From Candidatus Eiseniibacteriota bacterium (lineage in GTDB: Bacteria; Orphanbacterota; Orphanbacteria; Orphanbacterales; Orphanbacteraceae): a DNA stretch of 64,000 nt. The DNA lies in assembly GCA_016930695.1 (NCBI GenBank), contig JAFGGD010000041.1, forward strand, positions 1 through 64,000, given 5' to 3'. The translations under genes were made by a program, and so were the position numbers. Below, piece by piece: positions 48,928 to 64,000 of this stretch (within the stretch, counting starts at the first letter, position 1; each line of letters begins with the position of its first letter). The notes under the pieces are model-generated. The model was given only the letters and a program-made list of their open reading frames with translations, ran no database searches and was not told the origin of the DNA.

Positions 48928-50520
48928 ATGAAACCGAAGGACGAAGCGAAATACCGTTCCCCGATGGCCGAAGCCGTATTCGAGGCGTACCGGCGCGGGG
49001 AAGAGGACGAAACGATGAACCCCCTCGTCCTGGTCGGCCGGGACGGAAAACCGGTCGGCGCGCCCGACCCGGGGGATTCGCTCATCTTCTACGACATCCG
49101 CGGCGAGAGGGAGGTGGAGATTTCCGAGGCCTTCGTCGAAAAGGACTTCCCCCACTTCCCGGTGCGGGAGTGGCTCGACCTCCGCTACGTCACCATGATC
49201 CGCTATCACGAGAAGCTGAACGCGCGGGTCGCCTTCCCGCCGATCGGCGCGGTGGCGGGGACGCTGAGCGAAACGGTCGGCCGCGCCGGTCTCCGCCAGG
49301 CGAAGGTGGTGGAGACCGAGAAGCTGATCCACCTCACCTACTTCCTGAACGGCAAGAACCGCGACCCCTTCCCCAGCGAGGAGCATCACGGCATTCCCTC
49401 CCCCACGGTGCCGGACTACACCGCCGTGCCCGAGCTGGAGGCGGAGAAGGTGGCGGACACCATCATCGACCGCCTCGGCGATCCCGGCATCGCCCTCATC
49501 ACGGCCAACTTCGCCAACATGGACGTGCTCGGCCACCTGGAGGACGACGACGCGGCGATCCGCGCGGTGGAGACGGTGGACCGCTGCGTGGGGCGCGTGG
49601 TGGAGGCGGCGCGCGCGGCCGGCGCGGACGTGCTGATCACGGCGGACCACGGGACGGTGGAGAAGCGCCTCTACCCGGAGGGGACGAAGGACACCGGTCA
49701 CACCGACAGCCCGGTCCCTCTCGTCTACATCTCCGCGGGCGGCGTGGACGGCGTCACCTGCCGGGAGAAGGGCGCGCTCACCGACGTGGCCCCCACGGCT
49801 CTCGCGCTCCTCGGCTTGAAGCGACCGAAGGAGATGACCGGCGAGAACCTCCTCGGGGGCGTGCCGGAGAGGAAGGGACGGCGGCTCCTCCTCCTGATCG
49901 CCGACGGCTGGGGCTACCGCGAGGAGACCCACGGCAACCTGGTGGCGACGGCGAACACGCCGAAAATGGACCGTTATCTCGCCGAATGTCCCCACGGACT
50001 TCTCGCCGCCGCCGGCGAGGCGGTCGGCCTGCCGGAAGGGACCGTGGGGAACAGCGAGGCGGGACACCTCCACATCGGCGCCGGCCGGGTGATCTATTCG
50101 GACCGTCTCCGCATCGACAAGGCGATCGCGGACGGCTCCTTTCGCAAAAACGAAGCCTTCCTCTGGGCGATGGATGAGGCGGCGCAACGCGATAAAACCC
50201 TCCACCTCCTCGGCATCGTCTCCTTCTTCAGCAGCCACGGCTCGCTGGACCACTTGATGGAGCTTCTCGAGACGGCGAAGGAGCGTGGGGTGCAGCGCCT
50301 TCGCGTCCACAGCCTTCTCGGCCGCCGCGGTGAGAGGCCCGAGGCGGGCGCCGCGTACATCGAGGCGGTGGACGACAAGTGCCGTGAACTGGGACTCGGG
50401 GTGGTTTGCACGGTGACCGGCCGGTACTGGGCGCTGGACCGTGAGGAGAACTGGGATCGTGTGGAGAAAGCGTACCGGGCGATCGCATTCGGCGACGGGA
50501 GGACCGTCCCGCAAGCGTAG
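48928..50520 (+). CDS. gpmI: 2,3-bisphosphoglycerate-independent phosphoglycerate mutase, circularly permuted form
   Basis: Canonical C-terminal iPGM blocks (ETEKLIHLTYFLNG, NFANMDVLGH, LITADHGT, HTDSPVPLVYI, EMTGENLL) occupy residues 1-~300. Canonical N-terminal blocks (LLLLIADGWG, TPKMD, GLPEGTVGNSEAGHLHIGAGRVIYSDRLRID) and the transferase domain (GRYWALDREENWDRVEKAY) follow. RBS GGGAG before ATG 48928. Confidence 0.85.
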   Translation: MKPKDEAKYRSPMAEAVFEAYRRGEEDETMNPLVLVGRDGKPVGAPDPGDSLIFYDIRGEREVEISEAFVEKDFPHFPVREWLDLRYVTMIRYHEKLNARVAFPPIGAVAGTLSETVGRAGLRQAKVVETEKLIHLTYFLNGKNRDPFPSEEHHGIPSPTVPDYTAVPELEAEKVADTIIDRLGDPGIALITANFANMDVLGHLEDDDAAIRAVETVDRCVGRVVEAARAAGADVLITADHGTVEKRLYPEGTKDTGHTDSPVPLVYISAGGVDGVTCREKGALTDVAPTALALLGLKRPKEMTGENLLGGVPERKGRRLLLLIADGWGYREETHGNLVATANTPKMDRYLAECPHGLLAAAGEAVGLPEGTVGNSEAGHLHIGAGRVIYSDRLRIDKAIADGSFRKNEAFLWAMDEAAQRDKTLHLLGIVSFFSSHGSLDHLMELLETAKERGVQRLRVHSLLGRRGERPEAGAAYIEAVDDKCRELGLGVVCTVTGRYWALDREENWDRVEKAYRAIAFGDGRTVPQA

Positions 50521-52708
50521 GGCGATATTCGCGGCGACCCTTCTGCTCGCCCTCTTTCCCGCGGGCGCGATGGGCGGCGGCGGGGCCGATCCGCCGTTGC
50601 CCGCCGGAGGGCCGCCCGGCCGGGAGGAGTGGATCCGCGCGCTCCGCTCCGCGCCGAAAAGGAGCATCACGCCCTCCCGCCGCGCTCCCGCCCCGGGCGA
50701 CACGCTTCTCGCGTCCATCGCCGGCGAGATCCACGCCGACTCGCTCCGCCGGACCGTGGCGGATCTGGTCGCCTTCGGCACCCGCTACGAGTACGCCGCC
50801 GAACAGGAAAGCGCGGCGGCCTATCTGTACGACCGCTTCCGCGCCCTCGGCCTCGATCCCTACTACGAACCGTACGAACTCTCCGAGTGGGACGCCGTCG
50901 ACGCGGACTGGCTCTCCGGCGGGAGCGTAGGGTGGATGATCTGGTCCGACTCGCGGCAGGGGGATCGGAGCGTGATCCTCGCGACGGGAAACGGCGGCGC
51001 GAGCTGGACCGCCGAAGCGACGGTGCCCGCGCTCCTCCGGTCGATCGCCGCGACGCCCGGCGAGACATGGGCGGTGGGGGACTCGGGGATCGTGCTCCGG
51101 CGCGGCTCCTCCGCCTGGACCGTGGCGGACACCCTCGGCGACGCCCCGCTCGTCTCCGTCGACTTCGCCGACGACCGGCACGGCGTCGCGGTGAACGGCG
51201 AGGGATGGGTCTGGCTGACCGACGACGGCGGCTCCGTCTGGAGCGGCGAGCGAATCACCACTTCACTCCTCAAGGGCGCCGTCCGGGTCGACTCGGCGCA
51301 CACCTGGGTCTACGGCGGGATGGGCAAGATCTGGAGGCTCCGGCCGGAAGGGTGGGTCCTCGATGCGCTGCCGATCCGGAAAACGATCTACGACCTCGCA
51401 TTCGCCGACACCTCCTTCGCCGTGGGCGCCGTATCCGGCCCCTGGCTGCTCCTTTGGGACGGCGCGGCCTGGGACACCCTCTCCACCGGCGTCCCCTACG
51501 GCTTCTCCGTCGGCGTAAAGGGGGACTCCACGGTCTGGCTCGGCGGTCTCGATTCGCCGGTCCGCCTCACCCGGGTGATCCGCTCCTCCGACCGGGGCCG
51601 CACCTGGGAGGAGGTCCTCTTCCCGATCGGCGTGCTCTGGCGGAGCGTGAACCACATCCACTTCGGGCCGGAAGACACGGTTCTCCTCGCCGGCTACGAC
51701 GGCCTCTCCCTCCGCAGCGAAGACGGCGGCGACTCGTGGGTCTTCCCTCCGCTCGCCCCCTCCATCGCCCACCCCTCGCGCAACGTGGCGGCACAAATCC
51801 CCGGACGGGTCCGTCCCGACAGCGTGGTGATCCTCTCCGGCCACTACGATTCGATCGTGTACGACACCTCTTTCGACCCCTACGCGTCGGCGCCCGGCGC
51901 GGACGACGACGCCACCGGCGTCGCGGCGGTGCTCGAGGCGGCGCGCGCCTTCGCCGGGCGCGACTTCGCCTACACGGTCCGTTTCGTCCTTTTCAGCGGC
52001 GAGGAGCTGGGCCTTCTGGGGAGCACCGCCTACGCCTCGGCCCTCGCCGAGGCGGACGAAGCGATCCGCGCGGCGGTGCAGATCGACATGATCGGCATCC
52101 CCGGCCGTCCCTCCCACCTCTACGCGAACGAAGCCTCCGCGTGGATCCTGGACGAGGGGGCGGCGGCGGCAAGCGTCGCGGCGCCCGACCTGGATCTCTC
52201 CTACGACATCTCCCCCTGCATGGTCTACAGCGACCACGCCTCCTTCTGGCAAAGAGGCTACCCGGCGGCGATGCTGGGTGAGACGATCGAGGAGGACAAT
52301 CCCCTCCACACGCCGGGGGACACCCTCGGCAACTTGGACTTCGCCTTCACCGAAGAGAACGCCCGCTTCGCGGCGGCCCTGACGGCGCGACTCGCCGGCG
52401 TTTACACGCCGCCCGATCCCGATCTCGTCGATGCCCTTCCGGTCCGTCCCAACCCCGCCGGCGGCGCGGTGACGATCCCCTTCGCGCGCCCCGCCGGCGG
52501 CGGCACGGTCTCCGTGGCGATCTACGACGTGTCGGGACGGTTGGTGCGGGCGCTCGGCGCGGGGGAGATCGCGGCGCGGGGGGACATATTGGAGGCGGTC
52601 TGGGACGGGCGCGGCGCCTCCGGCCGCGAAACCGCGGCGGGGGTGTACTTCGCCCGGATCGAGGCGGGAGGCCGGAAGACCAGCAAGAAAATCGTCCGGC
52701 TGAGGTGA
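50459..52708 (+). CDS. M28 family peptidase with inserted BNR/Ycf48-like beta-propeller and T9SS C-terminal sorting domain
   Basis: M28 blocks (HYDSIVYD...APGADDDATGVAAVLEAARAF, SGEELGLLGS, DHASF). Middle sialidase/BNR-like repeats (SxDxGxSW-like: TDDGGSVWS, SSDRGRTWE, SEDGGDSWV). C-terminal VRPNPAGG...VAIYDVSGRLV...GVYFARIE...KIVRLR. The start is uncertain: GTG 50459 or 50441 give a signal peptide, and both overlap the gpmI 3' end. Confidence 0.8.
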   Translation: MWRKRTGRSHSATGGPSRKRRAIFAATLLLALFPAGAMGGGGADPPLPAGGPPGREEWIRALRSAPKRSITPSRRAPAPGDTLLASIAGEIHADSLRRTVADLVAFGTRYEYAAEQESAAAYLYDRFRALGLDPYYEPYELSEWDAVDADWLSGGSVGWMIWSDSRQGDRSVILATGNGGASWTAEATVPALLRSIAATPGETWAVGDSGIVLRRGSSAWTVADTLGDAPLVSVDFADDRHGVAVNGEGWVWLTDDGGSVWSGERITTSLLKGAVRVDSAHTWVYGGMGKIWRLRPEGWVLDALPIRKTIYDLAFADTSFAVGAVSGPWLLLWDGAAWDTLSTGVPYGFSVGVKGDSTVWLGGLDSPVRLTRVIRSSDRGRTWEEVLFPIGVLWRSVNHIHFGPEDTVLLAGYDGLSLRSEDGGDSWVFPPLAPSIAHPSRNVAAQIPGRVRPDSVVILSGHYDSIVYDTSFDPYASAPGADDDATGVAAVLEAARAFAGRDFAYTVRFVLFSGEELGLLGSTAYASALAEADEAIRAAVQIDMIGIPGRPSHLYANEASAWILDEGAAAASVAAPDLDLSYDISPCMVYSDHASFWQRGYPAAMLGETIEEDNPLHTPGDTLGNLDFAFTEENARFAAALTARLAGVYTPPDPDLVDALPVRPNPAGGAVTIPFARPAGGGTVSVAIYDVSGRLVRALGAGEIAARGDILEAVWDGRGASGRETAAGVYFARIEAGGRKTSKKIVRLR

Positions 52709-53146: not shown

Positions 53147-53965
53147 TTACACTTCGACCCCGACCCACCCCTTGATGGCGAAGCCGAAGACGACGCTCAC
53201 CACGAAGAAGACCAGGAGCCAGTGCAGGTTCACGCCCCAGAGCGCCATGTTCCTCTCGGGATAGGCGATCTCGATGGAACGGATTCGGGCGTCCTTGGGG
53301 AGGGGAGGCTCCGCCGGGTGGGTCCAGAGCGCGAGCGCTCCATCGACGTAGCGGCCCTGGGCGAGCTTGATCAGCCCTCCGCCGGCGATCACCCGCTTCA
53401 TGGCGGTCTCCCCGCCCAGGTCGAAGGACAGTTCGTGCGTTCCCTCTTTCTCCACGCGAATCCGCCAATCCACCTCCCTCTCTCCGGCGATCCGGAGAGG
53501 GGGCGTCTCGGCGACCAGGCCGTCGGGGACACGCATGGTGAGCGCCGACGGGTCGGCGTTCTCGTCCAGGCGGACCTTGACGATGGTCTTCTCGCCCGGA
53601 TGGAAGGGGCGGTGCGCGTAGCGCACGTCCAGTTGGATCAGGATGATCAACACCGGGACGAGCATGACGAGCATCGGCGTCAGGGCATGCCGCATATAGT
53701 TCATGTTGGTGGCCAGGATCCGGCGCTGCGCCGCCATCTGCAGCCCCAGGTCGTCCTGGAAGAGCCGCACCTCCAGGATGTAGGCCTTGATGCGGCCCTT
53801 CGCACGGGCGATCGCTTCCTGGTTCGACGTGTATCGAAAGATAACCAGCATGATCCCACCGGTCAGGACGGAAACCACCGTCAAACCGACCAACGGGTTC
53901 ATGCCGCCGAACAAGCCGATCAAGCCGTCGAAGAATGCCGTAACCGCGCTCACCAGGGGCCACAT
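53147..53965 (-). CDS. Hypothetical membrane protein (N-terminal and C-terminal TM segments, large central soluble domain)
   Basis: 272-aa ORF; last gene of the minus-strand sat/cysC/PDE cluster. Confidence 0.6.
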   Translation of the reverse strand: MWPLVSAVTAFFDGLIGLFGGMNPLVGLTVVSVLTGGIMLVIFRYTSNQEAIARAKGRIKAYILEVRLFQDDLGLQMAAQRRILATNMNYMRHALTPMLVMLVPVLIILIQLDVRYAHRPFHPGEKTIVKVRLDENADPSALTMRVPDGLVAETPPLRIAGEREVDWRIRVEKEGTHELSFDLGGETAMKRVIAGGGLIKLAQGRYVDGALALWTHPAEPPLPKDARIRSIEIAYPERNMALWGVNLHWLLVFFVVSVVFGFAIKGWVGVEV

Positions 53966-53986
53966 ACGCCGAATCCTCTCTCGTCT

Positions 53987-54178
53987 CTAGGAAATGTAAC
54001 CGAGTCCCTTCAGTTTCTTTTTGATTTCCTCGTCCGAGTCCGCCTCCTCGATCTTGGCGATCTCCTTCTCGAGGGCGTGGGTGATGAACTCGTCCGCCGA
54101 GGAGTAGCCGGCCACTTCGGCGTACTTCCGAATCTTCATCAGCAAATCCTTCGAGATCTTTACTTTCGGTCCGAACAT
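53987..54178 (-). CDS. Small ribbon-helix-helix-like protein with C-terminal EE..KKKLKGLGYI motif
   Basis: 63 aa. Homologous to the 63000..63221 protein (VKISKDLLMKIRKYAEVAGYSSADEFITHAL vs VTIKIPRPLYRRVSQVVQGSGFSSPTDFIVFVL). Beta-strand plus two helices pattern. Confidence 0.5.
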   Translation of the reverse strand: MFGPKVKISKDLLMKIRKYAEVAGYSSADEFITHALEKEIAKIEEADSDEEIKKKLKGLGYIS

Positions 54179-54195
54179 CGGTCCTCCTCCCGGGG

Positions 54196-56235
54196 TCAGA
54201 AGATCGGGCGGCCCACCATGTGCTCGCCCTTCTCGATCCCGAATTCGTTCAACAACGTGACCGTCAAATCATACAACATCGGATCGGCGATGCGGACTTC
54301 CCGGCTCGACACCAGGATCCCCGGCACCTCCCGCGCGTCGATGCAGTGGTCGCCGCTCCATTTCCCCGTGTTGTCCGCGAACCACTCCATCGGGAACTCG
54401 CCGAGCGCCGATTCGTTCGATCCCCGGTACTCCCGCGCGTAACCGACGCTCATGTCCGGCGCCTCCGCCGCGTAGGGGCCGTGGTACACCTCGTCGTTGC
54501 GGTACAGCGCGAGGATCGGCTGTTTGCCCGTCTTCGGGTCCCGCAGCTCCGTGAGCCGCGTCGTCAGTTCCTCGATCAGCGCGTCTTTCTCCCGGCCCGG
54601 CGAGACGACGCCGTACTTCTCCCGCCCCCGCGTGTTGATGTAGAGGCCGTTGATGCCGAGGGCGTAAACCCGGGTGCGGCGCCAGTCCACGTTGAGGAAG
54701 AAGTCGCTCTTCTCCCGCGTTTCCTTCGACGGATCCTTCAAAGTCAAATAACCGTTGTCGGCGAGCCAGGAGTTCAGGTGCACCTCCCGATACCAGGGCG
54801 CGAAACCGTGATCCGACATGGCGAGGACGAGCACGTCCTCCGGGAGACGGTCCAACGCCATCCCCACCGCCTGATCGAAGCGCTTCATGATGTCGTAGAT
54901 GATGTCCGGATGCTCCCGCGCCTCCGCGTCCGACGCGGGGTGGTGGGGGTCCATGGCGCGCCACATCACGTGGGTCTGCTGGTCCAGGCTGGAGAAGTAA
55001 TAGTAGAGGAGTCCCCATTCCTGGCCGACGAACTCGTTCAACAGGCTGTCGTAGACGCGCATCCTCTCGTCGAGCACGTAACCCGCCTGCTGGAGGAACT
55101 CCGTGTCCGTCAGGATCCCCGCCTCGAGCGCCTTGGTGTCCTCCGGCATCCCCTGCGTGTAGAAGCGGCCCGTCTTTTCGGCGATCTTCGCGGCCCAATC
55201 GTCGGGCGTGGAGATCGGCTGGGCCGGCGCGAGGGGATCGATGTTGATCGGCGAGACATAGAGGCCGAACTCGGGGGCCACCGACTTGAGGTAGAGCCGG
55301 GCGATGCCGGTCAGCCCCATGCCGGCGGGATCCAGCGCCGGACGAACGGCGCCCCAGAAGCCGTGATCGGGGAGAAAGTAATACTTCACCGGGACCCAAT
55401 CGCTCCACTCCCCCTCCCGGAGAAGCACCTCTTCCTCGCCGATGACGATCTTCGCGATCCTGTTTTCCACGTCCCTGTGGATCCGCACCGGACAGCCGCT
55501 CTTCTCGTGTCCCTCGCGCATCGGGTTCGGCGGACCGGGAATCGCCGTCTCCGCGGTCCCGCCGTCGAAGTACACGTCCACCACCTTGCCGCCGGAGATG
55601 TCGTCGGCGTTCTCCGGGCGGTGGGTCGTGAGATAGGTAAAGGTCCCCGGCGTGCCGAGGATGTCCGGCGTGCCGAGGCCGGAGAGGGTCTTCGCCCCCT
55701 CGCTCACCGGCGGGTAGTTGGCGGGGATCTTGAAGATCGCCGTGGGCACGCCGTGGGCGGTCAGGATGTCCCAGAAAGGCACCCCCCGCCGGAGGTTCAG
55801 CACTTCGCCGCCGCCGGTGGGAATTCGCCACTCCCCCCACAGCCCGATCCCGTCGTCGCTGCTCACCGCCTGCGAGGTGGACATGAAGGGGAGATAGGTT
55901 TTGGGGTCACGATGAATGAAGTCGAAAATGTCGTGCCCGCCCGGGTCCATTCCGGTGATGAAGTTGGACCACGCCACCGGGCTCTGGGGCGGGATGCTCG
56001 TGCCGAGGCTGGTGAAGGTCCCGCGGTCGATCAAGCGCTGAAAGTTGGGGAGATCCCCCCGATCCAGGAGGAGCCGGAGAAGCCCCGGATCCATCCCGTC
56101 GAAACCGAGAACGAGCACCTTCCCCCTCTTCGGCGCCGGGGCTTCCGCCCCGCCCATCTCCGCGATCGCCACGCCGACGACGAGCAGAAGGAGTGCGAAA
56201 AACGCTATGTATCGACGCCGCATCCGTCCGGTCAT
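54196..56235 (-). CDS. Exported PF01663 phosphodiesterase/nucleotide pyrophosphatase family protein (paralog 1)
   Basis: Signal/TM MRRRYIAFFALLLLVVGVAIA, VLVLGFDGMDPGL, PPQSPVAWSNFITGMDPGGHDIFDF, LAMSDHGF. Confidence 0.85.
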   Translation of the reverse strand: MTGRMRRRYIAFFALLLLVVGVAIAEMGGAEAPAPKRGKVLVLGFDGMDPGLLRLLLDRGDLPNFQRLIDRGTFTSLGTSIPPQSPVAWSNFITGMDPGGHDIFDFIHRDPKTYLPFMSTSQAVSSDDGIGLWGEWRIPTGGGEVLNLRRGVPFWDILTAHGVPTAIFKIPANYPPVSEGAKTLSGLGTPDILGTPGTFTYLTTHRPENADDISGGKVVDVYFDGGTAETAIPGPPNPMREGHEKSGCPVRIHRDVENRIAKIVIGEEEVLLREGEWSDWVPVKYYFLPDHGFWGAVRPALDPAGMGLTGIARLYLKSVAPEFGLYVSPINIDPLAPAQPISTPDDWAAKIAEKTGRFYTQGMPEDTKALEAGILTDTEFLQQAGYVLDERMRVYDSLLNEFVGQEWGLLYYYFSSLDQQTHVMWRAMDPHHPASDAEAREHPDIIYDIMKRFDQAVGMALDRLPEDVLVLAMSDHGFAPWYREVHLNSWLADNGYLTLKDPSKETREKSDFFLNVDWRRTRVYALGINGLYINTRGREKYGVVSPGREKDALIEELTTRLTELRDPKTGKQPILALYRNDEVYHGPYAAEAPDMSVGYAREYRGSNESALGEFPMEWFADNTGKWSGDHCIDAREVPGILVSSREVRIADPMLYDLTVTLLNEFGIEKGEHMVGRPIF

Positions 56236-56240
56236 GACTC

Positions 56241-58391
56241 TCAGTCCTCCCGCCGGCTCCGTCCGCCGTCCCGCTCTTCCGGGCGAGCGCGGTAGAAAGA
56301 CCGGCCTTTCATATAACGGGGGGTGTCGATTCCGAAAAGGTCGAGCACCGACGGTCCCACGTCCATGATCGCGGGATCGGCGGCGGCGAGGCGGCGGCTG
56401 CTGAAGAGAACGCCCGGGACCTCCCGCGCGTCGATGCAGTGGTCGCCGCTCCAGTTCTTCACGTTATCCAGGAACACCGATTCCGTCGCCTGGCCCACCG
56501 CGGCCTCCCAGCTCTGCCGGTAGCCCTTGGCGAACCCGACGATCACGTCCGGCGCGTTGTCCTTGTAGGGACCGTCGAAGAGGTCCTCCATGGGGATGGC
56601 CTTGTTGACGGCGACGATTCCTTTCTCCTCGTCCATCAGGCCGGTCATCCGATCGGCGATCTCCCGGCGGAGCGCTCCCGCTTCCTTCGGCTCCACGATC
56701 CCCTGCCCCTCGCGGTCCTTGATGTTGAGGTAGAGGCCGGCGAGGCCGAAGGAGTAGGCGCGGGTCTTGGACCAGTCCACGCCCTGGAACCACTCGCCCG
56801 ATGTCTTGTCGCCGTTCTTCAGCGCCATGTAGCCGTTCTCGATCAGCCAGGTGTTCAGGTTCATGCCGCGGCTGAAGTGGGTGAAGCCGTGGTCGGACAT
56901 GACCAGGAGCACCGTGCGGGTGTCGTCGCATTTCGCCAACGTCCGGCCGAGAAGCTCGTCCATCCGCACGTAGAGGTCCCGGATCGTGTGCCGGTATTTC
57001 TCCACGTCGTCACGGCCCCGGTTGGCGGGATGGCCGTCGGTCATGTACCGGAAGAACATATGCTGGATCCGGTCGGTGGCGTCGAACACGCAGGCGACCA
57101 TTCCCCGTTTGGCGCGGCTCAGGGCGTGGAAGAACTGCTTCTCCCGCTCCTCGTGGATCAGCCAGGTCTGCTCCAGGAACGCCTCCTCGTCGATCACCTT
57201 CTCGTTCAGCGCCCAGGTGTCCTCGGCGAGGCCGAGGGTGGCGTACGGTCCGAACAGCTTGGCGAGATAGACCGAGTAGAAAAGGGGCTGGGAGATCGGC
57301 ATGGCCGGGCTCTCGGGATCGATGTTGGTCGGCGTGAGGTAGATGTCCACGTACGGTTTCAGCGACTGGACGCGGAAACGGACCATGCCGCGCACCTTCA
57401 CGCCGAGCCCCGGCTTGAAGGTGAGGCGGATCCACTCGGAGTACGAGCCGACCTTCAGGCGGAAGTCTTGGTCCGGCAGATGGAAATGGACCTCCCCCTT
57501 CGCGTCATCGATCACGGCGCGCCAGGGAACGCGCATCTCGCCGCCGCCCGCGGTCATGCTGTTCTCGGGGCCGGGCACGAAACCGCGGACCTCGTTCCCC
57601 TTCCTCTCCATCAGATGCCTCTCGCCGCTGATCGCCTTCCCCACCTTCGAGGGGTCGGTGGTGAAGAAGCAGAACGATCCCTGCGTCCCCTTCAGGTCGG
57701 GGACGCACATCGCCGAGAGCACGGCGCCGTTGAACTTGACCGGCGGGAAGGTGATGGGCACCCGGAGAATGTGCGAGAAGATGCCGTGATCGCCGAGGAC
57801 CTTCCAGAAGGTGCTCGACTTCTGCATCAGCCGGATCACCGGCTTGCCGAGAGGAATGCGGTACTTGCCGATCTTGATATGCCGATCCGGGTTGGTGATC
57901 TTCACCGACGAGAGATCGACCAGGTAGTTTTTGGCGTCCCGGCCGAGGAAGTCGAAAACGTTGTGCCGCGACGCGTCGTTGCCGGTGGCGAAACTGGACC
58001 AGGCCACCGGCGACATGCTCGGCCAGGAGGACTGCAGCGGGCGGAAACTCCCCCTCTCGGCGAGACGGGAAAAGTTGGGGAGAAGCCCCTCGTCCATCCA
58101 TCTCTTCGCCAGCCCCGGATCGAGGCCGTCGAGGCCGAGGATCACCACGCGGTCCACGTCGGTCTTGGCGATGGAACGGCCGCGCCGGCGGATCACGCGG
58201 ATCACGAGACGGATCGGCCAGATCAGGATCGACAGGATCGCCAGCAGGAAGGTGACGAAAACGACCGCGAAGGAGGAGAGGAAAGCGAACCCCGCTCCGG
58301 GGCCGATGTAGGCGTGCGCCGGCGCGGCCGCGGCGAGCGCCGCCAGCGCCCAGAGGAACGATGTCGATAGGAACCGGGGTCTGCGTTTCAC
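56241..58391 (-). CDS. Membrane-anchored PF01663 phosphodiesterase family protein (paralog 2)
   Basis: Signal plus TM, VVILGLDGLDPGL, PSMSPVAWSSFATGNDASRHNVFDF, LVMSDHGF. The C-terminal SGDHCIDAREVPG block is shared with paralog 1. Confidence 0.85.
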   Translation of the reverse strand: MKRRPRFLSTSFLWALAALAAAAPAHAYIGPGAGFAFLSSFAVVFVTFLLAILSILIWPIRLVIRVIRRRGRSIAKTDVDRVVILGLDGLDPGLAKRWMDEGLLPNFSRLAERGSFRPLQSSWPSMSPVAWSSFATGNDASRHNVFDFLGRDAKNYLVDLSSVKITNPDRHIKIGKYRIPLGKPVIRLMQKSSTFWKVLGDHGIFSHILRVPITFPPVKFNGAVLSAMCVPDLKGTQGSFCFFTTDPSKVGKAISGERHLMERKGNEVRGFVPGPENSMTAGGGEMRVPWRAVIDDAKGEVHFHLPDQDFRLKVGSYSEWIRLTFKPGLGVKVRGMVRFRVQSLKPYVDIYLTPTNIDPESPAMPISQPLFYSVYLAKLFGPYATLGLAEDTWALNEKVIDEEAFLEQTWLIHEEREKQFFHALSRAKRGMVACVFDATDRIQHMFFRYMTDGHPANRGRDDVEKYRHTIRDLYVRMDELLGRTLAKCDDTRTVLLVMSDHGFTHFSRGMNLNTWLIENGYMALKNGDKTSGEWFQGVDWSKTRAYSFGLAGLYLNIKDREGQGIVEPKEAGALRREIADRMTGLMDEEKGIVAVNKAIPMEDLFDGPYKDNAPDVIVGFAKGYRQSWEAAVGQATESVFLDNVKNWSGDHCIDAREVPGVLFSSRRLAAADPAIMDVGPSVLDLFGIDTPRYMKGRSFYRARPEERDGGRSRRED

Positions 58392-58394
58392 TAC

Positions 58395-59714
58395 TTAGTC
58401 GCCTCCTCCCGTCAGCCTTCTCTCGATCACGCCGGCGACCGAGGTGATGTCGAACCCCTCGGGCATGGTCTCGGTGGTCCAGAGAAAGGCGTCGTCCCAG
58501 TTGTGCATGCCGGTGAAATGGGAGCGGCCGAACACGTCTCCGGTCCGCATCCATCCTTTTACGTCATAACCGTCGTTGGCGAGGAGGACCAGGTCCGGCG
58601 CGTGCGCCGTCTGGGGGCCCGAGTAGATCTCTTCGGGACGGAAGGCGCCCTGAAACACCTTCTCCCCCTCGAACTCGAGGGCCATCGCCTTCGATCGGAT
58701 CTCCTCGCAGATCGCCGGGATTTCCGCCGGATCGACGCACCCCTTCGGAAAACGGTCCTTCCGGTGCAGGTAGATCCGTGTCGGGTCGAGCCCGAAGGCG
58801 CGCGACGAGGGAGCGGCGTCGGCGAAAGACTCGGGCCGCTCCTTGGCGAAGGAGAGATACCCCTCCCGCGCCAGCCAGGCATTGAGATAGAACTCGCGAC
58901 GGATCAGGGTGAATCCGTGGTCCGAGAGGGCGATGAATCCCTCGGGACCGCCGGTCGTTTCCGCGTAGCGGTCGAACACTTTCCCGAGGAAGGCGTCCAC
59001 CTTGCCGTAGTACTCCATGGCGCGGCCGTGATGGGGATGGCCCGGATCCTCGACCGCCGCGTACTGGAAATGCTGAAGCCTGTCCGTGCCGGTGACCACG
59101 ATCTCGAAAAGGTCCCACTCCTCCCGGTCCCAGAGATAGTCCAATACCCGCTCCCTCCCCCGGAGGGTGCTCGTGAGTTCCCGAAAGAGGAAGTCCGGAT
59201 CCTTCCCGCCGCGCTGGGAGTCGACGTCGATCTCGTAGTCGAGCTGCTCCAGCTTTTTCGCCAGGAACGCCGGGTACACCGCCTTCCGCATATCGATCGC
59301 CACGAAACCGGCGATCAACACGCCCGGGATCTCCCGTGCCGGATAGGTGGAGGGTTGGTTCACCACCACCGAGCGGAGCCCTTTCTCACCGAGCCGATCC
59401 CAGAGGGTGGACGTCTTCATGCTCGGGAAGCTGGGGAACCGGACGCCGTATCCGCCCGGTTCGAACTCGGTGAAGCCGTAGATGCCGTGGGTGCCCGGGT
59501 CCGCGCCGGCCATGAAGCTGGGCCAGCTCACGGCGGATACCTCCGGCAGGGTGACCCGCATTTTCCGCAGGTTCCCGTCGCCGAAGATTTCCTTCGCCCG
59601 GGGCATCACGTCGCCGTCCATCAGCCTCGCGAGCAACGTCTGAGGCAGCCCGTCGATGCCGAAAACGCACGCCTTCGGCCCCGAACGCTTCTTTTTCCAG
59701 AAAGCGAGAGCCAA
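58395..59714 (-). CDS. Cytoplasmic PF01663 phosphodiesterase family protein (paralog 3)
   Basis: No signal peptide. VFGIDGLPQTLL, PEVSAVSWPSFMAGADPGTHGIYGF, IALSDHGF. Confidence 0.85.
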   Translation of the reverse strand: MALAFWKKKRSGPKACVFGIDGLPQTLLARLMDGDVMPRAKEIFGDGNLRKMRVTLPEVSAVSWPSFMAGADPGTHGIYGFTEFEPGGYGVRFPSFPSMKTSTLWDRLGEKGLRSVVVNQPSTYPAREIPGVLIAGFVAIDMRKAVYPAFLAKKLEQLDYEIDVDSQRGGKDPDFLFRELTSTLRGRERVLDYLWDREEWDLFEIVVTGTDRLQHFQYAAVEDPGHPHHGRAMEYYGKVDAFLGKVFDRYAETTGGPEGFIALSDHGFTLIRREFYLNAWLAREGYLSFAKERPESFADAAPSSRAFGLDPTRIYLHRKDRFPKGCVDPAEIPAICEEIRSKAMALEFEGEKVFQGAFRPEEIYSGPQTAHAPDLVLLANDGYDVKGWMRTGDVFGRSHFTGMHNWDDAFLWTTETMPEGFDITSVAGVIERRLTGGGD

Positions 59715-59736
59715 GAGGGTGATCCTCCTCTATTCC

Positions 59737-60348
59737 CTAGATATAGCCGAGATCGCGGAGGCGCTGCTTGATTTTTTCCTCCTCCTCGGCGGAGTACTCC
59801 TCCGAGGCGTCGGCGCCGGGAATGTAGCCCATCAGTTCGAGCGTTCGGATCACCTTTTGCACGCTCTCCTCAAGGTCCTCTTTGTCGGTCTCCACCAGGA
59901 CCTCCGGCTTGAGGGGCTCCTCGTAGGGGTCATCTACACCCGTAAATCCTTTGATTTCACCGGCTCGGGCCTTCTTGTAGAGGCCCTTCACGTCCCGCTC
60001 CTCGAGCACGTCGAGGGGGCACTTCGCGTAGACCTCGACGAAACGGCCGATCATCTCCCGGTTGTAGTCGCGGATGTCGCGATAGGGGCTGATGGCCGAG
60101 GCGATGGCGACCACGCCGTTGCGGCTGAGCAGGTTGCAAACGAAGCCGATTCGTTTGATGTTCTCGTCCCGGTCCTCCTTGGAGAACCCCAGACCCTTGC
60201 AGAGGTTCGTGCGGATCACGTCTCCGTCGAGCACTTCCACGTTCAGGCCGCGCTCGAGGAGGATCTCCTCCACCGCGCGGGCGATCGTCGTCTTTCCCGA
60301 CCCGGAAAGGCCGGTAAACCAAAGAGTGAAGCCTTTTTGCGAACTCAT
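59737..60348 (-). CDS. cysC: Adenylylsulfate (APS) kinase with ~25-aa acidic/basic C-terminal extension ending RLRDLGYI
   Basis: P-loop [11 protein letters not shown] and the canonical APS kinase core ([23 protein letters not shown]). Confidence 0.95.
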
Positions 60349-60420
60349 GCGTGCGTTCCTCCTCCGTGCGATCGAATGGGTCCCTCCCCAGGGACCACGG
60401 ATCGGCAGGAATCCCCGGTT

Positions 60421-61800
60421 CTAAAAGAGAGGTTCTCCGATCATGTGCTCCGGGATGTCCACGTTGAAAAACCGGAGAATCGTCGGCGCGATGTCGTAAA
60501 TCGAATAGGGATCCTTCTTCTTCACGTCCACCTTGGCGGGATGGTCCCAGATGAAGATCCCGTCCCAGTCGTGATTCGCGTCGTCCGGTCCGGTGTCGTT
60601 CTCGAAAATGTGCACCGCGCCGGTCCCCACCGAGCCGGCGGACCGCCAGGCGAGATCGCCGAAGAAGACGATCAGGTCGGGCGCGATGCCGTTCACCACG
60701 CGGTAGATGTCCTCCGGCTTGTAGACGGTGGTGCCGATCGGGTTCCCCTTCTCGTCGGGGATCGCCTCGATCTTCGCCTTCAGCTCGTCGCGGAAGGCGT
60801 CGTAGTCGGCCGAGGGGATCTTCCCCTTCGGCTCGCGCCCCTCCACGTTCAGGAAGATGCGCGAATAGTATCCGCCCTCGCCCCAGGCCTTCGTCTTGGA
60901 CCAGTTCACCATGTCCGGCGTGAGGCGGGTCGGCTCCGTGGGCGTTTCTTTGAGAGTCAAAAGACCCTCGCGGATCAGCCACTCGTTGACGCAGATCGCG
61001 CCGTCCATCCTGCGGGCGCCGTGGTCGGAGGTGACCATCACCGACGTGTCCCGCGGAAGGTCGTCCAGAAGAAGGCCGATCTCCTCGTCCACGAGCTTGT
61101 AGTAGTCGCGGATGGCGTGCTCGTACTTGTGGCCTGGCTCGTAGAGACGGTGCTCCTCGTCGAAGTAGCGCCAGAAGCCGTGATGCATCCGGTCGATCCC
61201 CATCTCCACCATCGCCATGAAATCGAACTCTTTTTTGCGGACGAAGTGACGGAACGCGGAGAAACGGCGCCGGGTCATCTCGTGGATCTGATCGAGGAGC
61301 CAGTCCTTGTCGTCGGTGCGGAAGTCCTTCACGTCGATCATGTAATCGCCGCCCGCCGCCTGGTCGACCTCGGAGGCCGCCTCGCGCGGGTGGGTCCACT
61401 GAACTTCCTTGCTCGGCGTGAGGAAGCTGGAGACCATCACCCCCTTGAGCGGCTTGGGCGGATAGGTCTGGGGGACGCCGAAAACGAGCGAGTTCAGGCG
61501 TTGCCGGGAAAGGTAGTTCCAGACCGTTTTCGCCTTCACGTACTTGGCGTTGGCGAAGAACAGATCCTTGTAATCGTAGCTCGCCCGATTCCGGAAACCG
61601 TAGAAACCGAGCTGGCCCGGATCCTGCGAGGTCATCATCGAGGTCCAGGCGGGCACGGTGATGGGCGGGATGGTGGAGCGCAGCTTGCCGTACACGCCGT
61701 CGTCCATCAACGAGCGCAGGTTCGGCAAATCGTCCCGCCAACGTTCGAACACGAGCTGGGGCGCCGCGCAGTCCAAACCGATCATGGCCAAACGACTCAT
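60421..61800 (-). CDS. Cytoplasmic PF01663 phosphodiesterase family protein (paralog 4)
   Basis: MIGLDCAAPQL, PPITVPAWTSMMTSQDPGQLGFYGF (Thr nucleophile), MVTSDHGA. Its start overlaps the sat stop (atga). Confidence 0.85.
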   Translation of the reverse strand: MSRLAMIGLDCAAPQLVFERWRDDLPNLRSLMDDGVYGKLRSTIPPITVPAWTSMMTSQDPGQLGFYGFRNRASYDYKDLFFANAKYVKAKTVWNYLSRQRLNSLVFGVPQTYPPKPLKGVMVSSFLTPSKEVQWTHPREAASEVDQAAGGDYMIDVKDFRTDDKDWLLDQIHEMTRRRFSAFRHFVRKKEFDFMAMVEMGIDRMHHGFWRYFDEEHRLYEPGHKYEHAIRDYYKLVDEEIGLLLDDLPRDTSVMVTSDHGARRMDGAICVNEWLIREGLLTLKETPTEPTRLTPDMVNWSKTKAWGEGGYYSRIFLNVEGREPKGKIPSADYDAFRDELKAKIEAIPDEKGNPIGTTVYKPEDIYRVVNGIAPDLIVFFGDLAWRSAGSVGTGAVHIFENDTGPDDANHDWDGIFIWDHPAKVDVKKKDPYSIYDIAPTILRFFNVDIPEHMIGEPLF

Positions 61801-62972
61801 GCGTTCTGCTCCTTGTCGCGATTCTGGTAGTGGTTCATCAGGATCTCGGCGACTTCGGGACGGGTGAACTCCACCGGCGGCCTCTCGCCGCGGCCGAGCA
61901 TCTCCCGCACTTTCGTGCCGCTCAGGAAGACGTGGTCTTCGCTGCCGTGGGGGCAGGTCTTGGACGACGCCATGTTACCGCACTTTTTGCAGAAGAAGGC
62001 GTGGTCGAAGAACATCGGGGTGATGTCGATCTCGTAGCGATCGAAATCCCGGAAGATGTAATGGGCGTCGTACGTTCCATAGAAGGAGCCCACCCCGGCG
62101 TGGTCCCGGCCGACGATGAAATGGGAGCAGCCGTAGTTCTTGCGGACCAAGGCGTGGAAGACCGCTTCCCTCGGACCGGCGTAACGCATCGCCGCCGGGA
62201 AGATGGAAAGGGCGGTCCGGGTGGAGGGGTAGTAGTTCTCGAAGAGCGCCTGGTAGCAATCCATGCGCACCTCCGCCGGAATGTCCTCGCTGCGCGTCGC
62301 GCCGACGAGGGGGTGGACCAAGAGGCCGTCCACGATCTCGAGGGCGCATTTCTGTAGATATTCGTGGGCGCGGTGGATCGGGTTCCGCGTCTGGAAGGCG
62401 ACCACCGTCTCCCAACCTTTCGCCTTGAAGAGCACCCGCGTCTCGATCGGATCGAGGCGGAAATTTTCGAAGCGTTTATGCTTGGGCCGCTGAAGCAGGG
62501 TGATCGGCCCTCCGAGGTAGGTGTCCGTGATCGACTGGAGGTACTGCACGCCGGGATGCGACTCATCGCTCGTGAGGAGGATCTTCTCCGCCTCCTGTAG
62601 TTTGTCGACGCGGTACTTCTCCTCCAGGTCGAGGACGCCGAGCACCTCGCCCCCCGTGCCGACGAGGGCGATCTTCTCCCCCTCCCGGTATGCGTCGCCG
62701 TCCCCCTCTTTCACCGCTAAAACCACCGGGATGGTCCAGGGGAGACCCTTCGCGAATCGTTTCAGGTCGAGCACGGAGATGTAGTCTTCGCGGGTCATGA
62801 AACCCTCGAGGGGGCTCATCGCCCCGATGGCGATCATCTCCAGGTCCGAGACCTCCCGTTCGTTCAGCTGGATTCGCGGAAGGGAACCGACCTTCTCCAG
62901 GAGGGACTCCCGTTCTTTCCCCTCGGCGATCCGATTGACCAATCTGCCTCCGTGCGCGCGTATCTGTGCCAT
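61797..62972 (-). CDS. sat: Sulfate adenylyltransferase (ATP sulfurylase)
   Basis: QTRNPIHRAHE and GRDHAG motifs; 391 aa. Confidence 0.95.
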   Translation of the reverse strand: MAQIRAHGGRLVNRIAEGKERESLLEKVGSLPRIQLNEREVSDLEMIAIGAMSPLEGFMTREDYISVLDLKRFAKGLPWTIPVVLAVKEGDGDAYREGEKIALVGTGGEVLGVLDLEEKYRVDKLQEAEKILLTSDESHPGVQYLQSITDTYLGGPITLLQRPKHKRFENFRLDPIETRVLFKAKGWETVVAFQTRNPIHRAHEYLQKCALEIVDGLLVHPLVGATRSEDIPAEVRMDCYQALFENYYPSTRTALSIFPAAMRYAGPREAVFHALVRKNYGCSHFIVGRDHAGVGSFYGTYDAHYIFRDFDRYEIDITPMFFDHAFFCKKCGNMASSKTCPHGSEDHVFLSGTKVREMLGRGERPPVEFTRPEVAEILMNHYQNRDKEQNA

Positions 62973-62999
62973 ATCCTCGTTCCTCGATTGTCCGGGGGG

Positions 63000-63221
63000 C
63001 TAATCCAAATAACCCAGGTTCTTGAGTTTTCTGCGGATGCTGCGCAACTCCTCCGGGGAGAATTCCTCCGGTTCTTCAAACACTCCCTTCTCTCCCAAAA
63101 GGTCCCGCAGCACGAAAACGATGAAGTCCGTCGGCGAACTGAAACCCGATCCCTGCACCACCTGGCTGACCCTGCGGTAAAGCGGACGCGGAATCTTAAT
63201 GGTGACTCGGTTCTCTTTCAT
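63000..63221 (-). CDS. Small ribbon-helix-helix-like protein with C-terminal EE..RRKLKNLGYL motif
   Basis: 73 aa, homologous to the 53987..54178 product; sits immediately upstream of sat. Confidence 0.5.
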   Translation of the reverse strand: MKENRVTIKIPRPLYRRVSQVVQGSGFSSPTDFIVFVLRDLLGEKGVFEEPEEFSPEELRSIRRKLKNLGYLD

Positions 63222-63357
63222 TCCCCTCTGGCTCCAATCGTATACCTAATCACACTCCAAAGAGAGCCTGATGATAGCCCAACCGCGGGAAAAAGTCAAC
63301 CGGACACAAGGAGGAAGTCAATCTTTAATTCCTTGTCTTACAATACATTATCACATT

Positions 63358-64000
63358 CTATCTTGTGCCGGGGGTCTCGGTCGCCCCGGAAAGTGAGGAC
63401 GGGGCGGGAGGATCCGCATCGGGCGGCCGGACCCACACCTCGACGGGAGTGGGGCCGTCGATCCGCAGGGTCTGCGCCCAGGTCGACCGGATCAACGCTT
63501 CGAGGCCGGGGGCGCGGAAATAGGTCTTCTCGGTCTGCCCGTCGATCACCACCACCGCGGGAGGTTTCCTGCGGAAGATCTCGAACACCTCGAGGTGCCG
63601 CTCATTGTACGGTTCCTGGCTCTGCAGGGAGAGGGGATGATCGATGCCGTGGAAGGGACGCCTGTCGGCGAGATACTCCCAGATCACCGCGCCGGAGAGA
63701 ACCGTCTCGCCCCAGTCGGAATGATCCGCCACTTCCCGCCCGACCCGCTCGACCACGGCCGGAGACCACTCGGCGTGGAACCGGACGCCTCCTCTGTTCC
63801 GCGCATAGACCGCCGAGTAAACCAGTCCGAAGAGGGCGAGGGCGAGGAGCAGCCGAGCGCCCACCCGCCGGACATCGAGGGTGCGCGCGACGATCCATGC
63901 GCCGCCGAGGAAGAGGAGACCGGTAAGAAGCCCCGCGTACGGCCCGATTCGGAGCGCCCCATCCGGCGGGCGACGAAGGAGAAAGAAGAGAAAGAGGATG
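63358..64000 (-). CDS. Hypothetical membrane protein, N-terminus beyond the window (partial)
   Basis: The reading frame stays open upstream of the GTG at 63864 through to the window edge (..ILFLFFLLRRPPDGALRIGPYAGLLTGLLFLGGAWIVARTLDVRRVGARLLLALALFGLVY..), with several hydrophobic helices. Confidence 0.5.
   Translation of the reverse strand, partial: ILFLFFLLRRPPDGALRIGPYAGLLTGLLFLGGAWIVARTLDVRRVGARLLLALALFGLVYSAVYARNRGGVRFHAEWSPAVVERVGREVADHSDWGETVLSGAVIWEYLADRRPFHGIDHPLSLQSQEPYNERHLEVFEIFRRKPPAVVVIDGQTEKTYFRAPGLEALIRSTWAQTLRIDGPTPVEVWVRPPDADPPAPSSLSGATETPGTR

Follow-up and report, generated by a model that had tools for sequence, protein, structure and literature searches.

An operon of Candidatus Eiseniibacteriota that combines sulfate activation with PF01663 enzymes of the alkaline phosphatase superfamily

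The described systems closest to the locus reported here are the sulfate-activation gene sets, which include sat-cysC operons, bifunctional synthases of 3'-phosphoadenosine 5'-phosphosulfate (PAPS) and fusions of ATP sulfurylase with inorganic pyrophosphatase (PPase). Such fusions are found in stramenopiles and haptophytes, where they pull an unfavourable reaction forward (PMC2275785). The locus lies in a stretch of 64,000 nucleotides from Candidatus Eiseniibacteriota bacterium (assembly GCA_016930695.1, contig JAFGGD010000041.1, positions 1 to 64,000 of the forward strand), hereafter called the window, and consists of a nine-gene operon on the minus strand between positions 53147 and 63221. 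Like the described sets, it encodes a canonical ATP sulfurylase (Sat) and a canonical adenosine 5'-phosphosulfate (APS) kinase (CysC), with a third enzyme placed between them or, in other genomes, fused to them, and we propose that it also shares the thermodynamic logic of pulling APS formation. In contrast with the described sets, the third enzyme is of the nucleotide pyrophosphatase/phosphodiesterase (NPP) type of the alkaline phosphatase (AP) superfamily rather than a PPase of family I, II or III, and the operon adds three paralogs of it, a probably Oxa1-like membrane protein and two putative ribbon-helix-helix (RHH) proteins.

The third enzyme, which we call PDE4, and its paralogs PDE1 to PDE3 resemble the NPPs and their relatives (Xanthomonas NPP, ENPP1-7, PhnA, PafA/SPAP) in their fold, in their two-metal motifs (GxD, DxxxH, SDHG and a C-terminal His) and in their Thr or Ser nucleophile, as well as, for PDE4, in an Asn some residues past the nucleophile. 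Unlike the NPPs, most of them are predicted to be cytoplasmic or at the cytoplasmic face rather than secreted. They are only 12-16% identical to solved structures, and they differ further by an invariant GFRNR motif (PDE4), an insertion of ~220 residues (PDE1 and PDE2) and dedicated sat and cysC neighbours. Classical PAPS sulfotransferases (NodH, Stf0, RaxST, LpsS) occupy the place in the pathway where one would expect a PAPS consumer, next to sat and cysC, but their domain is absent from the operon, from the scanned ORFs of the window and from the conserved neighbours of the cluster.

Literature searches with COG3379, with combinations of AP superfamily, sulfotransferase and PAPS, with the annotation names and with 'alkaline phosphatase-like' sulfotransferase found nothing on this cluster. 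Its accessory set, made up of four distant NPP-type enzymes, a bacterial DUF106/Oxa1-like protein and putative RHH repressors sharing a C-terminal tail with enzymes, did not come up in these searches, and the operon is probably the mark of a way to handle sulfate, or to sulfate the envelope, that has escaped study. Our preferred interpretation, a tentative one, is that of a self-contained, repressor-controlled operon for sulfate activation and sulfation, in which PDE4 would pull activation and the other paralogs together with the Oxa1-like protein would form a membrane arm.

Organization and conservation of the operon

The operon and its control region comprise the following features.

63271 to 63299, minus strand: promoter-like site with a -35 box TTGACT, a 17-nt spacer and a -10 box TATCAT (10/12 positions match sigma-70)
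63231 to 63267, minus strand: putative operator recognized by its conserved pattern, with the palindrome GCTCT-CTTT-GGAGT at 63254-63267 directly after the -10 box and a GGAGC half-site at 63231-63235
63000 to 63221, minus strand: small73, putative RHH repressor with the tail ...EELRSIRRKLKNLGYLD (family profile, homologue names)
61797 to 62972, minus strand: sat, ATP sulfurylase (Pfam PUA_2 and ATP-sulfurylase)
60421 to 61800, minus strand: PDE4, soluble NPP-type enzyme of the AP superfamily with the nucleophile Thr48 in PPITVPAW (PF01663)
59737 to 60348, minus strand: cysC, APS kinase with a C-terminal extension composed of a linker and the tail (PF01583)
58395 to 59714, minus strand: PDE3, soluble PF01663 paralog with a Ser nucleophile
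56241 to 58391, minus strand: PDE2, PF01663 paralog with an inserted domain of ~220 residues (PF01663, N-terminal segment analysis)
54196 to 56235, minus strand: PDE1, PF01663 paralog, predicted to be exported (PF01663, signals of its orthologues)
53987 to 54178, minus strand: small63, second putative RHH protein, with the tail ...EEIKKKLKGLGYIS (family alignment and profile)
53147 to 53965, minus strand: membrane protein, predicted to be of the Oxa1/YidC/TMCO1 (DUF106) kind (weak Pfam match, structural model)

This nine-gene order had been proposed in an earlier interpretation made from the DNA alone (hereafter the sequence-only reading). It was borne out, as all nine ORFs were found at these coordinates and their families were assigned with Pfam and NCBIfam. 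The intergenic gaps, counted from small73 to the membrane protein gene, are 27, -4, 72, 22, 3, 5, 17 and 21 bp. The spacing is thus tight or overlapping, with one gap of 72 bp, which separates PDE4 from cysC; at the junction of sat and PDE4, the stop codon of the former overlaps with the start codon of the latter. The promoter-like site upstream of small73 is the only sigma-70-like match between positions 52500 and 64000, and at its opposite end the operon is bounded by a gene for an M28 peptidase in convergent orientation. Neither the operon nor the window as a whole gave any match in scans for Rfam families and tRNAs, and there is therefore no riboswitch leader.

Sat scores well above the NCBIfam cutoffs (NF003166, 561.8 bits versus 387; TIGR00339, 436.2 versus 322.95) and matches PF01747 at E=2e-98. 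CysC likewise exceeds its cutoffs (TIGR00455, 250.5 bits versus 138.7; NF002059, 278.9 versus 244), it has the features of APS kinases including the P-loop GLSGSGKTT, and its top match in the PDB is 5cb6 (E=2e-67). Because both are bona fide enzymes according to these family models, the operon is predicted to make PAPS. The PF01663 scores of PDE4, PDE3, PDE2 and PDE1 are 158.7, 115, 105.7 and 113.9 bits, respectively, and that of a fifth paralog encoded elsewhere in the window (PDE5) is 147.6, for a gathering threshold of 23. The two-metal motifs GxD, S/T-x-x-(A/S)W, D...H, SDHG and the C-terminal His are invariant in the alignment of the five paralogs, and SDHG is present in 100% of the orthologues of PDE1 to PDE4.

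PDE4 relatives were found in at least 592 species genomes when one genome per GTDB species was scanned. The window proteins were then compared by tblastn with the 80 best loci and two others, which yielded 81 independent PDE4 loci. Near PDE4, cysC is present in 56 of the 81 loci (52 of the 73 with enough flanking sequence) and sat in 39, PDE3 comes after cysC in 38, and PDE2, PDE1, small63, small73 and the membrane protein gene are found in 24, 21, 20, 19 and 18 loci, respectively. In the 20 loci with small63, this gene lies between PDE1 and the membrane protein gene. The full PDE4-cysC-PDE3-PDE2-PDE1-small63-membrane protein set occurs in 18 of the 81 loci, and again in a Schekmanbacteria contig (L083). 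The set is split in seven loci into a block A, composed of small73, sat, PDE4, cysC and PDE3, and a block B, composed of PDE2, PDE1, small63 and the membrane protein gene. Reduced versions also occur, namely sat-PDE4 pairs without cysC (L072, L075) and PDE4-cysC pairs without sat (L002-L004). Across the 18 loci with the full set, identity to the window proteins has a median of 70% for CysC, 63% for Sat, 62% for PDE4, 50% for PDE2, 48% for PDE3, 46% for PDE1 and 37% for the membrane protein.

The record titles of these loci name Eisenbacteria, Latescibacterota, Krumholzibacteriia, Hydrogenedentota, Poribacteria, Armatimonadota, Omnitrophota, Planctomycetota, Thermodesulfobacteriota, Acidobacteriota, Actinomycetota and Anaerolineae. 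The sequence-only reading hinged on whether the association of sat and cysC with PF01663 genes recurs in relatives; the gene set recurs in at least 20 loci, and the conserved arrangement spans more than 10 phyla and is far beyond chance. An all-versus-all clustering of the ORFs of 83 loci revealed no additional family common across lineages. The module is therefore self-contained, without a classical sulfotransferase travelling along: none was found as a conserved neighbour in this clustering or in the Pfam tables and scans of further loci, and Sulfotransfer_1, 2 and 3 are absent from the Pfam-annotated neighbourhoods of L001, L002 and L083-L087. Within the window, no Sulfotransfer_1/2/3, CysH or CysQ domain was detected by Pfam in the nine operon proteins or in ~35 other ORFs, in agreement with the sequence-only reading, which had noted that the cluster encodes no classical sulfotransferase.

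This conservation bears on the possibility that the PDE proteins are generic, Pho-like phosphate scavengers, co-regulated with sulfate activation, for example when sulfated polymers replace phosphate-rich ones in the envelope, and without action on sulfonucleotides. PF01663 enzymes are typically phosphate scavengers, one of the four paralogs is probably periplasmic, and PDE5, which is unrelated to the module, looks like a scavenger. However, the other three are predicted to be on the cytoplasmic side, the gene order is fixed across phyla and the genes overlap or nearly abut, other genomes encode fusions of PDE4 to Sat and to CysC, and neither a Pho box nor phosphate-transport genes were seen as conserved neighbours in the ORF clustering. 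We consider scavenging a very improbable function for this set.

PDE4 and the chemistry of sulfate activation

The nucleophile block PPITVPAW of PDE4 and a GFRNR loop ~20 residues further on are both present in 82/82 orthologues; an Asn lies ~23 residues past the nucleophile. The identity of PDE4 across phyla is 60-68%. An identical entry at NCBI is annotated only as 'alkaline phosphatase family protein'. An exhaustive HMMER search for PDE4 relatives in 1.84 billion representative proteins returned 12,697 matches, and the best 150 of these include the following fusion architectures.

P0193: Sat-PDE4
P0196: CysC-PDE4, with the tail
P0242: PDE4-pyruvate kinase barrel-Sat
P0328: PDE4-pyruvate kinase, with the tail
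P0291: MobA-like NTP_transferase-PDE4
P0252: PDE4-GT2

As PDE4 is conserved like Sat and CysC and is naturally fused to both, it appears to be a core partner of sulfate activation. From the Sat-PDE4, CysC-PDE4 and PDE4-pyruvate kinase-Sat fusions, we infer that at least this paralog works directly with sulfonucleotide synthesis.

A sequence search of the PDB with PDE4 identified no relative. Its AlphaFold2 model has a mean confidence (pLDDT) of 72, which drops below 50 at residues 48-90 and 382-408, the active-site loops. Foldseek matched this model of moderate quality to ENPP7, ENPP5, ENPP1, Xac NPP and PhnA with a probability of 1.0, TM scores of ~0.5 and 12-16% identity. The nucleophile blocks of the four paralogs read ITVPAW, VSAVSW, MSPVAW and QSPVAW. 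The single pattern that the sequence-only reading had drawn up for them holds approximately, but PDE4, with PPITVPAWTSMMTSQDPGQLGFYGF, departs from it. None of the paralogs has the C/S-x-P-x-R motif of formylglycine-type sulfatases at the nucleophile, and they are thus not formylglycine sulfatases. PDE4 alone matches PF00884, at 24.3 bits, below the threshold of 25. As its Pfam matches are limited to PF01663 and this sub-threshold one, PDE4 does not belong to the inorganic PPase families I, II or III either (PF00719, DHH/DHHA2, HAD-type).

We propose that PDE4 is a third component of activation, a metal-dependent NPP-type phosphohydrolase that would act beside Sat and CysC to remove pyrophosphate (PPi) or to recycle a nucleotide by-product. 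The removal of PPi would pull the very unfavourable adenylylation of sulfate forward. Phosphoanhydride hydrolysis is natural chemistry for the NPP fold, and two of the fusion partners of PDE4, Sat and NTP_transferase, are both PPi-releasing enzymes. Sat, APS kinase, PPase and pyruvate kinase together constitute the classical set for in vitro PAPS synthesis and ATP regeneration.

Alternatively, the AP-superfamily paralogs might themselves catalyse sulfuryl transfer. In that case, PDE4 would take PAPS or APS from CysC or Sat and sulfate a universal acceptor (a nucleotide sugar or polyprenyl phosphate, for instance), and PDE2, the Oxa1-like protein and PDE1 would move the sulfate to periplasmic acceptors. 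No classical sulfotransferase is found in the operon or as a conserved neighbour at any locus, PDE4 is the only non-activation enzyme in all contexts, and its high conservation would fit an enzyme with a universal donor and a universal acceptor. Its presence within glycan-biosynthesis clusters devoid of classical sulfotransferases (L049, L085, L086) and beside sulfatases in Poribacteria points in the same direction. In L049, PDE4 is found among PMT_2, GT4, Wzz and WecA-like genes. Furthermore, the NTP_transferase and GT2 fusions fit a nucleotide-sugar acceptor. On the other hand, Thr/Ser two-metal AP/NPP sites strongly prefer phosphoryl transfer and are intrinsically far better at it than at sulfuryl transfer, fusions to Sat alone and to pyruvate kinase would be unexpected for a PAPS consumer, the motifs of formylglycine-type sulfatases are absent from the paralogs, and the operon of the window has no acceptor-specific genes. 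We regard this alternative as less likely than not, but as a serious competitor. The sequence-only reading had suggested an uncharacterized sulfonucleotide pathway built on AP-superfamily catalysts. This suggestion is partly supported: a conserved module that ties PF01663 enzymes to PAPS synthesis does exist, and its AP-type enzymes are candidates for sulfate transfer.

Based on the pyruvate kinase and Sat fusions, on the conservation of PDE4 at the level of Sat and CysC and on the poor sulfuryl transfer of Thr/two-metal AP sites, we rank an activation helper slightly above a sulfotransferase, by a small margin. Several points weigh against PDE4 acting as a PPase and against the broader interpretation built on it. 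PDE4 is found near cysC (56/81) more often than near sat (39/81), and it is kept beside the GTP-driven CysDN sulfurylase in the Thermosipho locus L086. It is fused to a GT2 domain in P0252, and in Poribacteria it stands alone in a carbohydrate- and sulfatase-containing catabolic cluster. The structural model of PDE4 is least reliable at the very loops of the active site, and if PDE4 is only a helper, the operon still lacks a sulfotransferase, which would have to be one of the other AP-type paralogs or the product of a gene outside the operon. The topology of PDE2 and the Oxa1-like assignment are predictions, with a sub-threshold Pfam match in the case of the membrane protein. Lastly, CysC and PDE4 of L086 are both devoid of the C-terminal tail described below, so that a rule of 'one tail per pair' is not universal.

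The L086 locus (positions 9184-16958), from a metagenome-assembled genome (MAG) of Thermosipho sp. (GCA_017656345.1), is a single operon within a glycan cluster. It encodes a PHP-domain protein, an RHH protein with the tail, APS kinase, a Na/sulfate symporter, CysD, CysN-CysC, a second RHH protein with the tail and the PDE4 orthologue. PDE4 thus also accompanies the GTP-driven CysDN sulfurylase, in a lineage with cultured relatives.

Such PHP genes are relevant to a third possibility, that PDE4, or PDE3, is a non-orthologous replacement of CysQ, i.e. a 3'-phosphatase that removes toxic 3'-phosphoadenosine 5'-phosphate (PAP) or trims PAPS, as housekeeping for sulfotransferases or a PAPS reductase encoded elsewhere. 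PAPS-use operons of other organisms include a PAP phosphatase, and a 3',5'-bisphosphate nucleotidase is known among the PHP proteins. A PHP-domain gene directly follows the genes for sulfate activation in L075, in L085 and, at a contig end, in L072. Neither cysC nor PDE3 was detected at these three places, and the position of the PHP-domain gene matches that of PDE3. AP-superfamily enzymes are also good monoesterases, and PDE4 is tightly paired with cysC. Nevertheless, sat-PDE4 pairs and the Sat-PDE4 fusion exist without cysC, PDE4 coexists with PHP candidates in L075, L085 and L086, and PDE2, PDE1, the Oxa1-like protein and the pyruvate kinase and NTP_transferase fusions would be left unexplained. 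A CysQ-like role at the centre of the system therefore seems improbable to us. Within our preferred interpretation, in which PDE4 assists activation, the soluble PDE3 would be a candidate for PAP removal, for which its position gives a weak hint.

Energy conservation from sulfate esters, with CysC and Sat running in reverse, was also considered and rejected as thermodynamically implausible, since sulfate esters lie far below the phosphosulfate bond in energy.

The Poribacteria loci (within L062-L082, e.g. L082 64-12273) contain a stand-alone, tail-less PDE4 orthologue with 54-56% identity and an intact GFRNR motif. Its neighbourhood is conserved and carbohydrate-catabolic, with genes for oligogalacturonate-lyase-like, GFO/IDH/MocA, UxuA-like, GNAT/FemAB, SGSH-like sulfatase, PhyH and S58 peptidase proteins.

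Putative RHH proteins, operator and shared C-terminal tail

RHH repressors with C-terminal extensions are well described (CopG, NikR, Mnt, RHH antitoxins, PutA). The proteins of the operon would resemble them in a predicted N-terminal beta-alpha-alpha domain, in a palindromic operator that overlaps the promoter and in an extension that is likely to bind a partner. They differ in that the extension is a capped helix of 16-20 residues that is also appended to enzymes. The window copies of small73 and small63 have no Pfam or NCBIfam match. The two align as one family, the profile of which matches the RHH domain of NikR in the PDB (E=0.0028). Database searches yielded more than 7,000 relatives; where NCBI or JGI names them, they are called CopG/Arc/MetJ regulators, and a few have PF01402.

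The upstream regions of small73 orthologues harbour a TTGACA -35 box and a palindrome over or just after the -10 box, such as TACACTCC-N3-5-GGAGTGTA and GCTCCAATTGGAGT, with further GGAG(T/C) half-sites spaced ~10-11 nt apart. The strict pattern ACTC[CT]N3-7[GA]GAGT occurs 22 times in 1.35 Mb of loci, and nine of these occurrences are 33-58 nt upstream of small73 starts; the operator of the window has one mismatch to it. The palindrome is also present in L084, in the Thermosipho MAG L086, where it immediately follows the -10 box, and in the WOR-3 locus L087, before a TauE gene. No such operator was found upstream of the separately encoded block B, which starts with PDE2. Since the palindrome is conserved at its own promoter, small73 is very likely the autorepressor of a widely conserved sulfate-activation regulon. 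In the operon of the window, it would repress transcription at the GCTCC-N4-GGAGT operator.

The whole arrangement of TTGAC(A/T), -10 box and (A/G)CTCC-N3-5-GGAGT was observed in L013, L014, L016, L018, L019, L021, L027, L043, L044, L084, L086 and L087. It is common to Eisenbacteria and to the Thermosipho MAG of 30% GC, and it has the appearance of a hallmark of a broad RHH regulon related to sulfate.

The tail has the form (Y/F/L)(S/T)xEE..Φ(K/R)x(K/R)L(K/R)xLGY(I/L) and ends small73, small63 and the CysC extension 0-2 residues from the stop. In the window, it is encoded on the minus strand at 63003-63060 (small73), 53990-54040 (small63) and 59740-59799 (CysC). We listed the proteins that have it in 87 loci (L001-L087). 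It is present on CysC in 47 loci, in which PDE4 is tail-less, and on PDE4 in seven loci, in three of which the adjacent CysC is tail-less and in four of which there is no adjacent CysC. It ends the CysC-PDE4 and PDE4-pyruvate kinase fusions and is internal in the PDE4-pyruvate kinase-Sat fusion, just before the Sat domain. It was also found on a 4,6-dehydratase of the short-chain dehydrogenase/reductase family (L064 3210-4298), on a sulfatase-family protein (L048 1707-3707), on a PDE1 orthologue and as a free peptide of 38 residues in L085 (5478-5594). In the Thermosipho locus L086, only the two RHH proteins have it.

APS kinases natively end in a helix of this form, as seen both in the CysC core of the window and in the enzyme of M. 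thermolithotrophicus (8a8h), which ends in ...VIRTAQKLGYL. The tail may thus be a copy or a mimic of this helix. We interpret it as a putative portable docking element that would tie enzymes and repressors to a common partner, for which Sat, PDE4 and the coiled-coil hairpin of the Oxa1-like protein are candidates. By docking the RHH proteins and CysC, or PDE4 in other lineages, to this partner, the capped helix would link enzyme assembly to regulation.

Other functions of the tail were considered. A targeting peptide for encapsulins or microcompartments was rejected, as no locus has shell genes, and a proteasome motif of the HbYX type was rejected on account of the variable distance to the C-terminus and of the Gly that precedes the Tyr. 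That the upstream Tyr is a substrate of sulfation is disfavoured, since the Tyr of CysC tails is replaced by Phe or Leu in small73 and looks like a structural hydrophobic staple; the tyrosine of LGY may be such a substrate. A membrane-targeting helix like that of MinD is disfavoured as well, because the tail is also found on periplasmic and DNA-binding proteins. Its amphipathicity is comparable, and membrane targeting of this kind may occur.

Membrane-associated proteins and other genes of the window

PDE1 and PDE2 are 36% identical and have the ~220-residue insertion in common. The N-terminus of PDE2 orthologues consists of a signal-like segment ending in AxA, a strictly conserved Y(I/V)GPGAGFA motif (YIGPGAGFA in the window), a transmembrane (TM) helix and an Arg/Lys run before the catalytic domain. 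Based on this positively charged cluster after the TM helix and on the positive-inside rule, PDE2 is probably membrane-anchored with its catalytic domain facing the cytoplasm. PDE1 orthologues have lipoprotein (LxxC) or Tat (RRxFLK) signals, which places PDE1 in the periplasm. Thus, the paralogs are probably three on the cytoplasmic side and one in the periplasm, and not two cytoplasmic and two exported, as had been thought from the DNA alone.

The Oxa1 superfamily comprises YidC, TMCO1, EMC3, Get1 and the archaeal DUF106/Ylp1 proteins. The membrane protein of the operon would be a bacterial, DUF106-like member that differs from them by a beta domain of ~130 residues between TM2 and TM3 and by its dedication to one operon. 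It is composed of TM1, a conserved coiled-coil hairpin with a TSNQ motif, TM2, a beta-rich domain at residues ~120-247 that is predicted to be periplasmic, and TM3, and its structural model (pLDDT 89) shows the same succession of elements. It has no significant Pfam match: PF01956 (EMC3/TMCO1) gives 15.1 bits (E=0.021) for a threshold of 27.1, and it is assigned neither to this family nor to PF02096. A word-indexed search found 65 homologues at E<1e-5, and JGI names relatives 'DUF106 family'. From these data, we take it to be a probable member of the Oxa1 superfamily, the beta domain of which would lie in the periplasm and which could serve as an insertase for PDE2 or as a scramblase.

In our preferred interpretation, PDE2 at the inner face of the membrane, the Oxa1-like protein as an insertase or scramblase and the periplasmic lipoprotein PDE1 would make up the membrane arm. 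This arm would hand the activated group, or a lipid- or glycan-linked derivative of it, to the cell envelope. A more radical version, by analogy with the routes for undecaprenyl phosphate-linked sugars and phosphoethanolamine, is a sulfation of envelope glycans or lipids outside the cytoplasm that does without classical sulfotransferases, the sulfuryl group of PAPS or APS being transferred by the NPP-type enzymes. PDE4 would then act on a universal carrier, e.g. polyprenyl phosphate or a nucleotide sugar, PDE2, the Oxa1-like scramblase and PDE1 would carry activated sulfate across the inner membrane, and the docking helix would tie the components together and regulate them. We consider this version unlikely.

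Variant loci, in which parts of the set are missing and envelope enzymes are encoded alongside the PDE genes, lend the system an envelope or glycan flavour. In L064, a methyltransferase-GT2-NTP_transferase-4,6-dehydratase operon adjoins a PDE2-like gene and PDE4, and in L080, two membrane-anchored PF00884 proteins are encoded on either side of PDE2-PDE1-small63. Membrane-anchored PF00884 proteins adjoin PDE clusters in L064 and L048 as well. AP-superfamily envelope transferases of this Pfam family (EptA/MCR-1, LtaS, OpgB, BcsG) are similar to the PDE proteins in having an AP fold with a Ser or Thr nucleophile at the membrane or in the periplasm. They differ from them by their phospholipid donors and by their family, and the operon of the window has no PF00884 gene, the nearest one being at 6273-8174. 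The latter gene (minus strand) codes for a membrane-anchored 'sulfatase-family' protein with an N-terminal TM region of ~200 residues, a sulfatase domain and SGSH_C. The protein is ~30% identical to the PF00884 proteins adjoining PDE clusters in L003, L004, L048-L050, L080 and L085. A polysaccharide-deacetylase-like gene lies beside it (8281-10251, minus strand).

The fifth paralog lies outside the conserved module.

41351 to 42916, minus strand: PDE5, PF01663 lipoprotein with the signal ...AVFLAGC

The sequence-only reading had listed this gene as a fifth paralog. Its PF01663 membership was confirmed, and it proved to be a lipoprotein gene that does not travel with the cluster in other genomes, as a PDE5-like gene is near only 1/82 loci. 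The C-terminus of PDE5, ...ARENLEALPYLR (...ENLEALPYLR), is a variant of the tail in which Pro replaces Gly. PDE5 adjoins a gene for an M1-family peptidase (43037-45190).

Further features of the window were observed outside the operon. Upstream of it, a gene that runs off the window end (63358-64000, minus strand) codes for a protein with a hydrophobic N-terminal part and a soluble C-terminal part. It has no Pfam match, is not conserved beside the cluster elsewhere and is possibly a large GT-C-like membrane protein. Two large M28 peptidases are encoded at 50441-52708 (plus strand) and 3344-6157 (minus strand), the first with a C-terminal sorting domain of the type IX secretion system (Por_Secre_tail / FlgD_ig), as would be consistent with a member of the FCB group. 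An ORF at 48922-50520 (plus strand), which was missed by gene picking based on the GC content of third codon positions, strongly matches domains of cofactor-independent phosphoglycerate mutase (iPGM), but in an odd order, Metalloenzyme at residues 108-300 followed by iPGM_N at 398-527, and might be a frameshifted, permuted or mis-called gene. The GC content of the window is ~65%; between 36001 and 38000 it is 0.525 versus ~0.65 elsewhere.

Textbook sulfate activation is thus firmly tied to a family of proteins that counts more than 12,000 representatives and has no assigned function. If PDE4 is a helper that recycles PPi or nucleotides, it would represent a new kind of accessory enzyme, which would explain how APS and PAPS are made in PPi-rich anaerobes and would be useful for enzymatic PAPS production. 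If the paralogs are sulfotransferases, they would provide a new catalytic solution for sulfation and the first route that sulfates envelope components outside the cytoplasm. The repressor-operator pair marks the regulon in genomes, and the short, portable helix is directly testable. The cluster also offers a way to approach sulfated polymers of the cell surface in Poribacteria, Latescibacterota, Eisenbacteria, Hydrogenedentota, Armatimonadota, Desulfobacterota and Thermotogota.

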